Positions 13,519 through 16,443 of a DNA stretch of 19,645 bases are shown here, piece by piece. The stretch comes from a virus (Duplodnaviria > Heunggongvirae > Uroviricota > Caudoviricetes). The notes under the pieces were generated by a model. The model had not been told where the DNA came from, ran no database searches, and was given only the letters and a program-made list of their open reading frames with translations. Made by a program: the position numbers and the translations under genes. Each line of letters starts with the position of its first letter. Position 1 is the stretch's first letter. The stretch lies in IMG/VR virus record IMGVR_UViG_2579778660_000002, one strand, 5' to 3'.

Positions 13519-13717
13519 GAGGTTGCCCCGTATTCAGTGTCGCTGATTTGTATTGTCTGAAGTTGTTTTTACGTTAAGTTGATGCAGATCAATTAATACG
13601 ATACCTGCGTCATAATTGATTATTTGACGTGGTTTGATGGCGTAGATGCACGTTGTGACATGCAGATGATAATTATTATCATTTTGCGGGTCCTTTCCGG
13701 TGATCCGACAGGTTACG

Positions 13718-13729
13718 GGGCGGCGACCT
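13718..13729. other. cos site: cosN cohesive-end sequence GGGCGGCGACCT with lambda cosQ/cosB flanks
   Basis: ...TCCGGTGATCCGACAGGTTACG|GGGCGGCGACCTCGCGGGTTTTCGCTATTTATGAAAATTTTCCGG... reads as the lambda right end joined to the left end; continues into the Nu1 start. Confidence 0.9.
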
Positions 13730-13906
13730 CGCGGGTTTTCGCTATTTATGAAAATTTTCCGGTTTAAGGCGTTTCCGTTCTTCTTCGTCATAACTTAATG
13801 TTTTTATTTAAAATACCCTCTGAAAAGAAAGGAAGCGACAGGTGCTGAAAGCGAGCTTTTTGGCCTCTGTCGTTTCCTTTCTCTGTTTTTGTCCGTGGAA
13901 TGAACA

Positions 13907-14197
13907 ATGGAAGTCAACAAAAAGCAGCTGGCTGACATTTTCGGTGCGAGTATCCGTACCATTCAGAACTGGCAGGAACAGGGAATGCCCGTTCTGCGAG
14001 GCGGTGGCAAGGGTAATGAGGTGCTTTATGACTCTGCCGCCGTCATAAAATGGTATGCCGAAAGGGATGCTGAAATTGAGAACGAAAAGCTGCGCCGGGA
14101 GGTTGAAGAACTGCGGCAGGCCAGCGAGGCAGATCTCCAGCCAGGGACTATTGAGTACGAACGGACGCACTTAATTATCGCAACCAGGCGCAAGTAA
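13907..14197 (+). pseudogene. nu1: Terminase small subunit Nu1, truncated after about codon 86
   Basis: MEVNKKQLADIFGASIRTIQNWQEQGMPVLRGGGKGNEVLYDSAAVIKWYAERDAEIENEKLRREVEELRQASEADLQPGTIEYER matches lambda Nu1, then diverges at 14163/14164 and stops after 10 unrelated codons. Confidence 0.9.
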
Positions 14198-14232
14198 TTG
14201 TTGGCGATAATATCGGTCTTGGTGAAGTTGCC

Positions 14233-16443
14233 ATGACCTGCACTGATATCTCTGTTGAGCCATCAGGTTATATTGGATTTGTCAGGATTTACATCTCAGC
14301 GAAAGGTTATCCATCAGTAGCGTCTAGTGCCGGTGATAATCTTATTTCTGGTTATATAGTTAGATCAGAAGTGTCAACAAAAAGATATTCCGGTCTATTT
14401 GTTGGTTCAGATACAAAATCATTGTATTCGTACATTTACAGCCAAAGTTCTGGCCCGCAATGGATACGTCATACCCGCAGAGATGAATTAAGCCGCTTTG
14501 GTCAAAATGAATCAACAACTCGTATGTATGGTCCAACTGGTGATCGTTTCTTTGAAATCCATACTAACGGGAGTTGGGGAGTTTATGATTCTTCTTCTGG
14601 ACAATGGTCTCCGTTAGGTTTAGCCCAGGGCGGTACTGGTGGAAGAACTATCGAGCAAGCACGTGCGAACTTGCGGGTAATGTATGAGCAAAAAGCTGGC
14701 CTTGCTAATACTGACCTAAACACCCTTACCGGTGAATATTCTGGTTTCTATCAACAACCAACGAGCGCTTACGCAACAGAAGAATTAAATTACCCAATCG
14801 GTCTGGCGGGCGCTTTAATAGTGCTCCAAACGAGAGCCAACACTGCTTCTTCCTGCGTTCAGGTGTACTACCCTTATAATAATCCGGGAATTACTTATAG
14901 ACGAATATATGAAGGAGGAAGCGGTACCTGGTCTGAATGGAAGAGAGATGTATCAACAGAAAGGGTTGAAGAGGGAAAAGAAACAACTTACGTATATTCT
15001 ACGTATTCTTCAGGCGCACCACGCTTACAGGTTTCCAAATCTGGTTTGTGGGGTTGTCATAATGGCACTGGCTGGTTGCCATTAGCTGTTGGGCAAGGAG
15101 GTACAGGTGCGACAACAGTAGAAGATGCGCGAAACAACTTAAGTCTTGGCGAAAGTAGCGCAGTTAAATTTAAAAACCTTACTTTAACCGAAGCGCTCGA
15201 CACGACATTAGGACTGCTTACAAAAACAGGACGAGACTGGAACACGCAGCATACTGATAACATTAATAAATTTATACCAATTGCAGGCAGTACAAACGGC
15301 CCGGCAGGTTCTATGGTTCTTGGCGGCATTCATGTTCAATTTAGTAAAAATTATGCTGTGCAGTTCGGAGGCCGCAATTCCGGTTTTTGGGGAAGAACAA
15401 TTGAAAATGGAACGACGCAGGAATGGAAGAAATTACTAACAGTAGACGATCTCAATTCATCTACCGATCTTGCTGTCAGGTCATTAACCACATCTAACCC
15501 GGTAAAATCTGGCGGAGGGCGAATTGATGTCCTTGGAAGCACGTCAGACTATAGCAAAATGGATTGCTTTGTACGTGGGTTTGATAGCACCGGTAATTCT
15601 CTCGCGTGGGCGTTGGGTTCATCAGTCGGCGTAAGTAAGATGCTGTCGCTAAAAAATTTCTTTAGCGGAGCTGAGATACTGTTAAATGGTAATGACGGCG
15701 CGGTTCAACTCAAAACAGGTGCTGTTAACGGGGCTAAAGCGCAGGCGCTCACTATCAACAAGGATGAGGTTAACTCAACTGTTGATTTAACTCTTACAAA
15801 ACAAACAGGGACTGGAAATCGTTTTGTTTTACAGAACTTAGGTAATACAGAACTATCATTTGCCGCAAAAGTATGGGGATCAAGTGATCGACAAAACGTT
15901 TTTGAGGTTGGAACGTCTGCTGCGTATCTGTTTTATGCGCAAAAAACGTCAGCAGGCCAGTTGTTTGATGTAAATGGCGCTATTAATTGCACAACGCTGA
16001 ATCAGTCATCAGACCGCGACCTTAAAGACGATATTCTCGTTATCAGCGACGCGACGAAAGCAATCCGTAAAATGAACGGATACACCTACACGCTCAGGGA
16101 AAACGGGATGCCTTATGCTGGCGTTATTGCACAGGAAGTAATGGAGGCGATACCAGAAGCTGTGGGATCGTTTACTCATTACGGTGAAGAGTTGCAGGGA
16201 CCAACGGTTGACGGCAATGAATTACGTGAAGAAACACGTTATCTGAATGTTGACTACGCCGCCGTGACGGGGTTACTTGTTCAGGTCGCCCGTGAAACAG
16301 ATGGTCGCGTTACCGCGCTGGAAGAGGAAAACATAACGCTACGTAAAAATCTGGCAACAGCAGGCACCCGGATCAGCACTCTGGAAAATCAGGTAAGCGA
16401 ACTGGTTGCACTTGTCCGGCAGTTAACAGGAAGCGAACATTGA
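14233..16443 (+). CDS. Side-tail-fibre-like protein, 5'-truncated, with C-terminal intramolecular-chaperone (peptidase S74-like) domain
   Basis: 736-aa ORF from the first ATG; the frame is open upstream back to the Nu1 junction; repeated LAxGGTG motifs (LGLAQGGTGGRT, LAVGQGGTGATT); C-terminal SDRDLKDDI...NGYTYTL...AGVIAQEVMEAIPEAV...LEEENITLRKNL resembles auto-cleaving chaperone domains of tail fibres/spikes. Confidence 0.65.
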   Translation: MTCTDISVEPSGYIGFVRIYISAKGYPSVASSAGDNLISGYIVRSEVSTKRYSGLFVGSDTKSLYSYIYSQSSGPQWIRHTRRDELSRFGQNESTTRMYGPTGDRFFEIHTNGSWGVYDSSSGQWSPLGLAQGGTGGRTIEQARANLRVMYEQKAGLANTDLNTLTGEYSGFYQQPTSAYATEELNYPIGLAGALIVLQTRANTASSCVQVYYPYNNPGITYRRIYEGGSGTWSEWKRDVSTERVEEGKETTYVYSTYSSGAPRLQVSKSGLWGCHNGTGWLPLAVGQGGTGATTVEDARNNLSLGESSAVKFKNLTLTEALDTTLGLLTKTGRDWNTQHTDNINKFIPIAGSTNGPAGSMVLGGIHVQFSKNYAVQFGGRNSGFWGRTIENGTTQEWKKLLTVDDLNSSTDLAVRSLTTSNPVKSGGGRIDVLGSTSDYSKMDCFVRGFDSTGNSLAWALGSSVGVSKMLSLKNFFSGAEILLNGNDGAVQLKTGAVNGAKAQALTINKDEVNSTVDLTLTKQTGTGNRFVLQNLGNTELSFAAKVWGSSDRQNVFEVGTSAAYLFYAQKTSAGQLFDVNGAINCTTLNQSSDRDLKDDILVISDATKAIRKMNGYTYTLRENGMPYAGVIAQEVMEAIPEAVGSFTHYGEELQGPTVDGNELREETRYLNVDYAAVTGLLVQVARETDGRVTALEEENITLRKNLATAGTRISTLENQVSELVALVRQLTGSEH

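Follow-up and report, generated by a model that had tools for sequence, protein, structure and literature searches.

The stretch of DNA analysed here, referred to as the window (19,645 nt), carries the remnant of a lambda-like prophage that lies at the lambda attachment site of Escherichia coli and has kept an intact lambda packaging (cos) site. The element measures 18,539 bp from attL to attR and occupies lambda attB, with ybhC to the left of attL and ybhB-bioA on the other side. Its features are listed in Table 1.

Table 1. Features of the prophage remnant (window coordinates; a prime after a gene name marks a truncated gene)
Feature	Position	Strand	Evidence or remark
attL common core GCTTTTTTATACTAA	1331-1345	+	Exact match to lambda core; lambda-type P' arm follows
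int, lambda-type tyrosine integrase, full length (356 aa)	1419-2489	-	354/356 residues as in lambda Int
xis, excisionase, full length (72 aa)	2467-2685	-	71/72 residues as in lambda Xis
Early-left operon remnant of lambda (kil, cIII, ea10, ral)	7176-8397	-	98.9% identity to lambda 33180-34401
quuD', C-terminal part of DLP12-type Q antiterminator	8389-8610	+	PF06530 on 71-aa product; 96.7% identity to DLP12
DLP12-type late block	8799-11966		Annotation of relatives and Pfam; window 8857-14163 is 96% identical to K-12 DLP12
Porin (late block)	8799-9881	-	
essD-rrrD-rzpD lysis cassette (late block)	10426-11641	+	All three genes intact
bor (late block)	11673-11966	-	
cosQ GGGTCCT, packaging-termination subsite	13689-13695	+	Same in lambda and all aligned lambdoid phages
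cosN nicking site	13716-13731	+	As lambda; 12-nt cohesive end GGGCGGCGACCT at 13718-13729
I2	13735-13767	+	As lambda
cosB R3	13767-13782	+	As lambda
cosB R2	13826-13841	+	A>G at 13835 (lambda bp 118)
cosB R1	13867-13882	+	As lambda
nu1'	13907-14197	+	86 lambda codons, then 10 out-of-frame codons and stop; PF07471
Deletion junction	14162-14165		BLAST and base-by-base comparison with GPEC1054; 2-bp microhomology (CG)
stf', C-terminal 736 codons of side-tail-fibre gene	14233-16443	+	Peptidase_S74 chaperone domain, PF13884
Ancestral phage 'b region'	16481-19645	+	99.2-99.6% identity over 3,046 bp to PhiR70_1, ev099 and mEp332

At the left end, window positions 1331-3027 match lambda 27724-29420 at 97%, and the P' arm of attL aligns with the attP sites of lambda and ev099. 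A preliminary description of the window, which proposed helper-dependent, cosmid-like mobilisation of the element, had listed attL, int and xis as intact, which they are, and had left attR to be located in the complete genome. It lies 18.5 kb from attL and 225 bp past the window end, in the source contig (L004, 15964-15978, equivalent to window position 19870), and its P arm is of the ev099 type, not the lambda type; an absent or degenerate attR is thereby ruled out. A second att-like core (18048-18062, 2 mismatches) is probably a chance match, or belongs to the ancestral b region common to viable phages. This region contains a tfa fragment (at about 16481-16604), a serU-like tRNA fragment, a gene for an AraC-family regulator (18120-18872) and IS remnants. 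ARAGORN finds no tRNA at the element, and the only structured RNA given there by Rfam is the lambda cIII thermoregulator (RF01804, 7414-7472).

The early-left remnant stops at a deletion junction, and from 8391 on the match is to the 3' sequence of DLP12 quuD. This junction accounts for the loss of sieB, N, pL, rex, cI, cro, cII, O/ori, P and nin and of the 5' portion of Q. In agreement, neither the annotation of relatives nor the Pfam list of the source contig contains N, cI, cro, O, P or a whole Q, and quuD' is annotated in GPEC1054 as a pseudogene, incomplete N-terminally. A plasmid-type replication gene is likewise absent, the O/ori and P region being deleted, and annotation, Pfam and alignment reveal no head or tail-shaft gene in the element; the earlier statement that nothing remains for replication or for making particles is thus borne out. 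The truncated genes are bet', quuD', nu1', stf' and tfa'.

The cos site was delimited by alignment to NC_001416 and the DE3 prophage, which places lambda bp 1 at window position 13718, with subsite definitions taken from published work that also describes the role of cosQ (PMC9026076; PMC4856287, the latter for cosQ). Positions 13713-13735 match lambda at every base and hold the sole cosN copy in the window; I2 and all of cosB (R3-I1-R2-R1) are present, the IHF site I1 is unchanged, the spacing between cosN and cosB is unaltered, and cosB and nu1 are oriented toward attR and bio. The 7-bp cosQ element, which we take to be lambda 48473-48479 in the coordinates of Wieczorek and Feiss (2001), is invariant in 11 of 11 aligned sequences, nearby substitutions falling outside it.

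A 239-bp segment, lambda 48446-182, serves as a complete functional cos in Feiss-laboratory cosmids (PMC4856287). Its counterpart at window 13661-13899 shows six differences from the lambda reference, four of them upstream of cosQ (48448, 48459, 48467 and 48471) and the others being A118G and a missing G138. The last of these, together with the changes at three of the upstream positions (48459, 48467 and 48471), is the usual allele of DE3 and of natural lambdoid phages (Turner, PhiR11_1, 2H10 and others). Since G138 is absent from DE3 and every natural lambdoid phage aligned, it is peculiar to the lambda reference record, and its loss is discarded as a defect of R2-R1 spacing. The T>C change at 48448 is the sole one absent from all nine aligned lambda-type phages; a Stx1a phage has C in this column but is poorly aligned there. 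The transition A118G falls in the CGTTTCC core of R2 and corresponds in position to R3 bp 55; phage PhiR63_1 has it too, and for the viability of that phage the literature search yielded no documenting paper. Point mutations in R2 are reported to be milder than those in R3 (PMC9026076). The alignment of cosN and cosB, which the preliminary description had proposed as a check for nicking- or binding-site mutations, reveals no apparent disabling one, and a cos disabled by mutation is rejected, the loss of G138 being a common allele and the R2 transition being shared with PhiR63_1. Its wording of cos as intact and lambda-identical is exact for cosQ, cosN, I2, R3, I1 and R1 and has to be amended for R2. 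The sites required in cis for excision and for initiation and termination of packaging are all intact, and rare helper-driven events are possible.

Downstream of cos, residues 1-86 of Nu1' match lambda fully, with one synonymous change among the 86 codons, as had been noted. They cover the winged-helix DNA-binding domain and the start of the central helix; residues 1-68 match PDB 1J9I and residues 1-90 match 6HN7. The break falls precisely at 14163/14164, where, as previously recognized, the sequence jumps into the interior of the side-tail-fibre gene, at codon 343. The stf' reading frame starts at an internal ATG and represents residues 366-1101 of the 1,101-aa protein of relatives. With these 736 codons and the tfa fragment still in place, the assertion that every head and tail gene is deleted is correct for head and tail-shaft genes and overstated for tail fibres. 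Lost at the junction were 4,000 bp that 18 related genomes keep and that comprise the remainder of nu1, the A'-'J fusion, lom and the first 342 codons of stf. The junction is spanned by none of 5,426 complete E. coli genomes. The missing block of exactly 4,000 bp raised the possibility of an assembly or construction artefact, which is ruled out by independent assemblies and a 15.7-kb identity: the 96-aa Nu1' fusion protein is also called in GCA_000627855.1 and in Logan assembly SRR1186742, and the NCBI contig (GCA_000627855.1) shows no mismatch to the window in an overlap of 15,739 bases.

The same remnant, 4,000 bp longer (22.5 kb), is present in 18 complete E. coli genomes, including APEC O78 and GPEC1054. 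These are 99.9-100% identical to the window once the 4,000-bp block and, in some genomes, insertions of IS2 are set aside, and GPEC1054 shows at least 99.98% identity on either side of the junction; a 19th genome matches 89% of the window. The 22.5-kb form shares attL, attR and the other deletions with the 18.5-kb element, but retains the whole of nu1 and stf together with A' fused to 'J and lom, and its dimer (45.1 kb) would fit a lambda head. The element is collinear with lambdoid phages, is bounded by att sites with an integrase, has lost essential modules and shares nested deletions with its relatives, as expected of a cryptic lambdoid prophage of the DLP12 type. It is one stage in the nested deletions of an ordinary lambda relative and, judged from sequence similarity, a deletion derivative of a phage of the ev099/mEp332 type. 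This ancestor combined lambda-type int, xis, att, cos and nu1 with a Q, a porin and lysis genes of the DLP12 type. A series of illegitimate deletions then removed gam and most of bet; a stretch that begins at sieB and N, takes in cI, O/ori and P and ends within Q; and a third stretch holding the 3' part of A, most of J and every head and tail-shaft gene, which gave a state that persists in the 18 genomes. A fourth deletion, in the present lineage alone, took the 4,000 bp between nu1 codon 86 and stf codon 343.

In its neighbourhood cos is among the least conserved segments. Its identity to lambda is 97.5%, whereas the flanks reach 99.4-100% except in the 142 bp that immediately precede cos (96.5%); the corresponding figures against DLP12 are 96.7% for cos and 97-100% for most of the flanks. 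Because cos is conserved no better than its flanks, these comparisons give no apparent sign of selection maintaining it. A lambda-type cos is also common, being found in 3,971 of 5,426 complete E. coli genomes (about 73%), K-12 and BL21 among them. Given the anatomy of the element, its series of deletions, the absence of a replicon, its size and the parallel with DLP12, the cos site is very probably a passive relic of recent inheritance in a lambda-type prophage that is decaying at lambda attB. It is intact because the whole remnant is young, being 97-100% identical to living phages, and the element, which has no replication functions, late-gene activator or particle, cannot spread.

The activity that may plausibly be ascribed to this locus, by analogy with DLP12, is terminase cutting and recombination. 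When a phage of lambda specificity grows in the cell, its terminase would bind cosB and cut the chromosomal cosN. Combined with some 3 kb of homology at 99% identity across Rz-bor-cos-nu1 (plus int-xis and kil-ral), the break would promote homologous exchange, with the locus as donor and recipient; genes would pass into phage genomes while the element itself stayed put. Recombination between lambda and DLP12 in the R-Rz-cos-nu1-A region is about 100-fold above that with Qin or Rac, and 10 of 19 sequenced junctions (the 'half' of that paper) adjoin cos (PMC3945230). The realistic role of the remnant would be that of a phage-gene reservoir (porin, lysis genes, bor and the cos-nu1 region) for incoming lambdoid phages, with pick-up by recombination that terminase cuts at cos would stimulate.

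For packaging by lambda terminase, a pair of cos sites must share one orientation and lie 38-52 kb from each other (PMC8575938; PMC9764419), small cos plasmids are packaged solely as multimers that fit this range (PMC9764419), and the concatemers of cosmids and satellites arise by replication (PMC4856287; PMC6092414; PMC10803314). Lacking N, cI, cro, O, P, ori and a complete Q, the element can form no concatemers. There is no second cosN in the window, nor in 55 kb of core chromosome downstream (APEC O78). A dimer would measure 37,078 bp (76.4% of lambda) and a trimer 55,617 bp (114.7%), neither of which is within 38-52 kb, and an 18.5-kb circle with one cos is no substrate for lambda packaging. 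The dimer is a borderline case: at 37.1 kb, or 76% of lambda, it is barely below the usual lower limit.

These figures bear on the proposal of a helper-dependent, cosmid- or satellite-like element that is excised by the Int and Xis of a helper and packaged by the helper terminase from its own cos, which we consider very unlikely. In its favour are the integrity of attL, attR, int, xis and cos, the mobilization of cos-bearing PICIs by lambda and phi80 (PMC6092414) and the trans packaging found for defective prophages of O157 (PMC2669165). However, there is no replicon to provide concatemers, whereas even the minimalist satellites bring their own replication genes and use concatemers for packaging (PMC10803314); no multiple of the 18,539-bp unit lies within 38-52 kb (PMC9764419); and the 4-kb deletion of this lineage turned a fitting dimer into a misfit, opposite to what selection for packaging would produce. 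The conservation of cos, no better than that of its flanks, and the lack of the defining features of PICIs and PICMIs also argue against it, and the defective K-12 prophages tested, DLP12 included, did not excise upon lambda infection (De Paepe et al., PMC3945230). Thus, of the preliminary proposal, the sites needed in cis for excision and packaging by a helper do stand, and neither of the observations it named as refuting was made; cosmid-like mobilisation is unsupported, the attL-attR distance does not suit the packaging limits, and the logic of a minimalist satellite does not apply. That the element is a hitcher for which a phage supplies Int, Xis, terminase and capsids, so that it or a chimera with its left 12.4 kb becomes encapsidated, is very unlikely; this could proceed through the just-subthreshold dimer, or through 40.1-kb cos-to-cos packaging with a helper in tandem at attL. 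If it were true, the porin, bor and AraC cargo would spread between strains without replication of its own.

Packaging in situ, either rightward from the chromosomal cos into bio-uvrB, with transduction of a specialised or lateral-like kind, or from a helper cos to the remnant cos in a tandem at attL, appears highly improbable. The orientation of cosB and nu1 would suit the rightward route, and a lambda prophage at attL would place helper cos and remnant cos 40,110 bp apart (82.7% of lambda), within range. A precedent would be the one-ended 'doc' particles that Sternberg and Weisberg reportedly described in 1975 as arising by packaging of lambda prophages still in the chromosome. Against the rightward route stands the lack of a second cos in the 55 kb downstream in a related complete genome; cos terminases cannot do without a terminal cos, and lateral transduction is reported not to occur with cos phages (PMC8575938; PMC12829572). 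A helper at attR would give a spacing of 26.9 kb, which is too short, no tandem lysogen is observed, and the product of a tandem would be a defective chimera, not the element.

Defence by decoy, in which truncated Nu1, the chromosomal cos or both titrate or poison an incoming lambda-type terminase, is extremely improbable, even though Nu1' has the whole winged-helix domain (PDB 1J9I) without the TerL-binding C-terminus (domain map in PMC9026076) and TerS interference by PICI Rpp proteins is an effective anti-phage strategy (summarised in PMC9026076). The truncation is a lineage-specific accident, relatives having a whole nu1; a promoter scan around cos and nu1' gave nothing beyond shuffle expectation, which leaves nu1' without a promoter of its own, and the Q gene is incomplete. 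K-12 carries cos in DLP12 and at further genome matches, yet serves as the standard host permissive for lambda.

With cos regarded as a passive relic, an intact cos near int, xis and att in a gutted prophage is an expected by-product of deletional decay and not the mark of a satellite, and the importance of the finding is small beyond correct annotation. Similar findings may be sorted by asking whether there is a replicon, whether a multiple of the length fits the helper capsid, whether cos is conserved above its flanks and whether relatives carry nested deletions.

Cosmids share the cosQ-cosN-cosB module of about 240 bp and are packaged in trans by a lambda helper (PMC4856287), but their plasmid replicon gives concatemers or multimers with 38-52 kb from cos to cos (PMC9764419), whereas the element has no replicon and a misfit size. 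Like the cos-type PICIs (EcCICFT073) and PICMIs, it is integrated, has an integrase and no capsid genes and carries a cos for a helper terminase (PMC6092414; PMC9026076). Unlike the present element in lambda attB, PICIs use att sites that are never prophage-occupied; they are without lysis and structural genes, while the element has essD, rrrD, rzpD, stf' and tfa', and they encode AlpA or Stl and a primase-replicase with an origin, of which Pfam and annotation show none here. PICIs also redirect packaging by Rpp-type proteins and have a different cosB, whereas that of the element is of the phage type (PMC9026076); no packaging-hijack function (Rpp, TerS homologue or capsid-size redirection) was found in it, the sole packaging-related product being truncated lambda Nu1. 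PICMIs lie beside fis, depend on Int, AlpA and a replication protein, and have concatemers as their packaging substrate (PMC10803314); of these three core functions the element, between ybhC and ybhB, has only int. The defective prophages of O157 Sakai are lambdoid, have head or packaging defects and can still be excised, packaged and occasionally transferred by means of co-resident prophages (PMC2669165). Of the prophages considered from Table 2 of that study, those positive for packaging are all replication-positive, and transfer often occurs via recombinant phages (PMC2669165), whereas replication is gone from the present remnant, which amounts to 38% of phage size.

A close counterpart is DLP12, with the same order Q - porin - essD - rrrD - rzpD - bor - ybcV - ybcW - ylcI - cos - nu1, 96% nucleotide identity across 5.3 kb, a head/tail deletion that joins a terminase A' stump to a tail-fibre-assembly (tfa') stump, and an AraC-family regulator (AppY in DLP12) near the right end. 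DLP12 of K-12 also retains int and xis, and Qin likewise keeps cos and a Nu1 homologue. DLP12 differs in its position at argU with IntD, as opposed to lambda attB with lambda Int and Xis, in keeping the nin-Q region, which the present element has lost, and in its full-length nohD, where nu1 is cut here at codon 86; the porin of the present element is intact and only 88% identical, and 736 stf codons are kept. The layout is thus an ordinary one, already known from the K-12 cryptic prophage DLP12.

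The window contains a defective lambda-type prophage that occupies the lambda attachment site. As the preliminary description had it, attL, int and xis are intact: the left core is perfect, and Int and Xis are almost identical to the lambda proteins. The right attachment site, sought in the source contig, was located 225 bp past the end of the window, where ACTTTTTTATACTAA precedes the bacterial B' arm; its P arm, closely similar to the attP arm of phage ev099, retains P1, H1 and P2 together with the Xis sites. Core to core, the element measures 18,539 bp, compared with 22,540 bp in its relatives, a form of the same remnant carried by 18 complete E. 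coli genomes.

Coordinates of features in the window
Feature	Position	Strand	Remarks
ybhC	1-1284	minus
att core	1331-1345		15 bp, perfect
lambda att-int-xis match	1331-3027		97% identity
int	1419-2489		354/356 identical to lambda Int
xis	2467-2685		71/72 identical to lambda Xis
lambda kil-cIII-ea10-ral	7176-8397		98.9% identity
DLP12 quuD 3' part	8391-8840		96.7% identity
DLP12 porin-essD-rrrD-rzpD-bor-ybcV-ybcW-ylcI-cos-nohD	8857-14163		96% identity
lambda match at right of the preceding block	11180-14163		99.4% identity
cosN	13716-13731		same as lambda
nu1' (truncated nu1)	13907-14197		86 lambda residues, then 10 foreign

Among 5,426 complete E. coli genomes, the whole window is found at 99.9-100% identity in the 18 relatives, interrupted exactly at the nu1' junction by additional DNA (some are also interrupted elsewhere by IS2 insertions), and a nineteenth genome, EC130, matches 89% of it, which makes 19 genomes with a match to at least 80% of the window; none of the 5,426 spans 13600-14800. 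In GPEC1054 the additional DNA is 4,000 bp long and its ends share CG, a 2-bp microhomology. It contains the remaining nu1 sequence, a fusion of 5' A to 3' J sequence, lom, and the beginning of the gene for the side tail fibre, a protein of 1,101 aa in the relatives whose first 342 codons fall in this block. Comparison with GPEC1054 confirmed the break reported earlier, at which the lambda Nu1 codons give way to the interior of a tail-fibre gene. The truncated Nu1' still includes residues 1-68, the DNA-binding domain of structure 1J9I. The round figure of 4,000 bp raised the suspicion of an artefact, which was rejected on finding the 96-aa fusion called in both GCA_000627855.1 and a Logan assembly; all 15,739 bases over which the NCBI contig and the window overlap agree. 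The deletion is genuine and peculiar to this lineage. The A'-'J junction of the precursor lies at 22428-24408 in GPEC1054 (L001) and is present in 17 other complete genomes.

Mapping onto lambda and the K-12 cryptic prophage DLP12 revealed that sieB, N, pL, rex, cI, cro, cII, O with ori, P, ren and nin are all missing from ral to mid-Q, consistent with how the relatives are annotated and with the Pfam families listed for the source contig. None of these sources contains a replicon for the element, and the earlier statement that it holds nothing for replicating stands, the O-ori-P region being gone. At 6304-7452, exo is intact (226 aa), gam is wholly and bet mostly deleted, and this loss is a further internal deletion in a series of decay; kil and cIII are kept, with the cIII Rfam thermoregulator at 7414-7472. 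A poly-C tract at 6154-6163 counts 9 C in the window and 10 C in GPEC1054, a length difference that leaves the DUF1317 gene open here, where the source contig gives a 61-aa product, and frameshifted there; the tract may be slippage-prone or a sequencing-sensitive homopolymer. Between the truncated Q' and the lysis cassette, an intact porin gene (8799-9881, 360 aa) shares only 88% identity with its K-12 DLP12 counterpart, nmpC, which is disrupted by IS5, amid DNA of 96-99% identity, and appears to be a diverged cargo allele.

The right end (16600-19645), comprising tfa', an AraC-family regulator and IS remnants, matches its counterpart in phages PhiR70_1, ev099 and mEp332 at 99.2-99.6% identity, and is therefore the b region of the ancestral phage. 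The regulator gene (18120-18872, 250 aa) is intact, is carried by viable lambda relatives, and takes the right-end 'moron' position of AppY in DLP12, with which its product shares only 29% identity. About 60 bp upstream of it, a second att-core-like sequence, GGTTTTTTATACTGA (18048-18062), differs from the lambda core at 2 positions. Two such matches were obtained in just 2 of 200 window shuffles, so that a match by chance would be uncommon, though it may occur; the region is present in viable ev099, mEp332 and PhiR70_1 and so is part of the ancestral b region. The stretch at 17360-17822 resembles the tRNA-Ser (serU) region of phage SerU-LTIIb (94.8% identity); within it a T-arm-like GGGGTTCAAACCCCC at about 17519-17533 differs from the relatives at one position, 17528. 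ARAGORN called no tRNA at 17360-17822, which therefore looks like the 3' piece of a tRNA and may be a scar left in the b region by an old integration or recombination.

Alignment to the DE3 prophage and the lambda reference NC_001416 places lambda bp 1 at window 13718, and in megablast searches against phage records 13000-14163 is 99% identical to lambda, running through the cos junction. From lambda 48427 to bp 447 the sequences differ at twelve points: nine substitutions upstream of cosQ (48427-48471), then A118G, a missing G138 and a synonymous A430G in nu1. cosQ (GGGTCCT, window 13689-13695) is unchanged, as are cosN, I2, R3, I1 and R1. The description of cosQ-cosN-cosB as lambda-identical holds for these components and is slightly too strong for R2, whose core CGTTTCC becomes CGCTTCC through A118G. 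In an 11-sequence alignment with lambdoid phages, the substitutions near cosQ are the majority allele, A118G also occurs in phage PhiR63_1, and the absence of G138 is common to DE3 and all natural phages aligned. It is NC_001416 that carries an extra G at bp 138, between R2 and R1 (between window 13854 and 13855), missing from DE3, the window and all nine other lambdoid phages; scoring cosB spacing against this reference yields a spurious 1-bp deletion. The changed R2 position corresponds to bp 55 of R3, where bp 55-63 are contacted by TerS and defective changes are known at bp 56, 58 and 59; a transition at a conserved base pair does more harm in R3 than in R2 or R1 (Murialdo and Feiss review, PMC9026076). 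The functional cos of Feiss-lab cosmids, lambda 48446-182 (PMC4856287), corresponds to window 13661-13899. We therefore judge the element's cos, from its sequence, to be very probably functional.

Three results indicate that its retention is not meaningful. With 97.5% identity to lambda (flanks 99.4-100%, except the 142 bp directly upstream, 96.5%) and 96.7% to DLP12 (most flanks 97-100%), cos shows the lowest conservation in its neighbourhood. Lambda-type cos, counted when at least 80% of the 239-bp module was covered, occurs in 3,971 of the 5,426 complete genomes, DH10B, C600 and BL21 included. In K-12 DLP12 an independent deletion had the same outcome: cos and nohD are kept, the start of terminase A is fused to a tail-fibre-assembly stump, the AraC-family gene appY lies further right, and head and tail genes are absent.

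Cos together with attL, int and xis had been read as equipment for cosmid-like, helper-dependent mobilisation. [quoted passage not shown] The lambda head accommodates 38-52 kb, smaller cos plasmids being packaged only as multimers of fitting length (PMC9764419), which in cosmid assays arise by replication (PMC4856287). Replication and packaging from concatemers are features of PICIs (PMC6092414) and even of the minimalist PICMIs (PMC10803314). The element lacks a replicon. The proposed comparison of the attL-attR distance with packaging limits found an attR, and multiples of 18,539 bp that flank the permitted range: 37.1 kb (76% of lambda) and 55.6 kb (115%). Neither the missing replicon nor the length supports cosmid-like or satellite-like mobilisation. 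A dimer of the 22,540-bp precursor (45.1 kb) would fit a lambda head, a fit lost with the 4,000-bp deletion, which therefore makes a cosmid-like fate less likely, not more; the most mobilisable form, if any were, would be the precursor. In APEC O78, a related complete genome, core chromosome (bio to ompX) makes up the 55 kb that lie downstream of cos, and it contains no second cosN. The only favourable geometry that we could construct is a helper lambda integrated in tandem at attL, packaged from helper cos to remnant cos over 40.1 kb; its product would be a defective chimera, and no tandem lysogen was observed. Since Asadulghani et al. show that help from other prophages allows defective ones to be packaged (PMC2669165), we keep a small probability for rare mobilisation of the element.

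A role in recombination is suggested by analogy with DLP12, whose R-Rz-cos-nu1-A segment (3,353 bp, 98% identical to lambda) was marked by De Paepe et al. (PMC3945230). [quoted passage not shown] The present remnant offers lambda 2,984 bp of homology at 99.4% around cos, plus two more blocks; its cos most likely acts as a terminase-cut recombination hotspot, and the remnant as a gene reservoir for lambdoid phages. Tested against the defining features of PICIs, PICMIs and cosmids, the element does not conform; it is, and works like, a cryptic lambdoid prophage of the DLP12 type.
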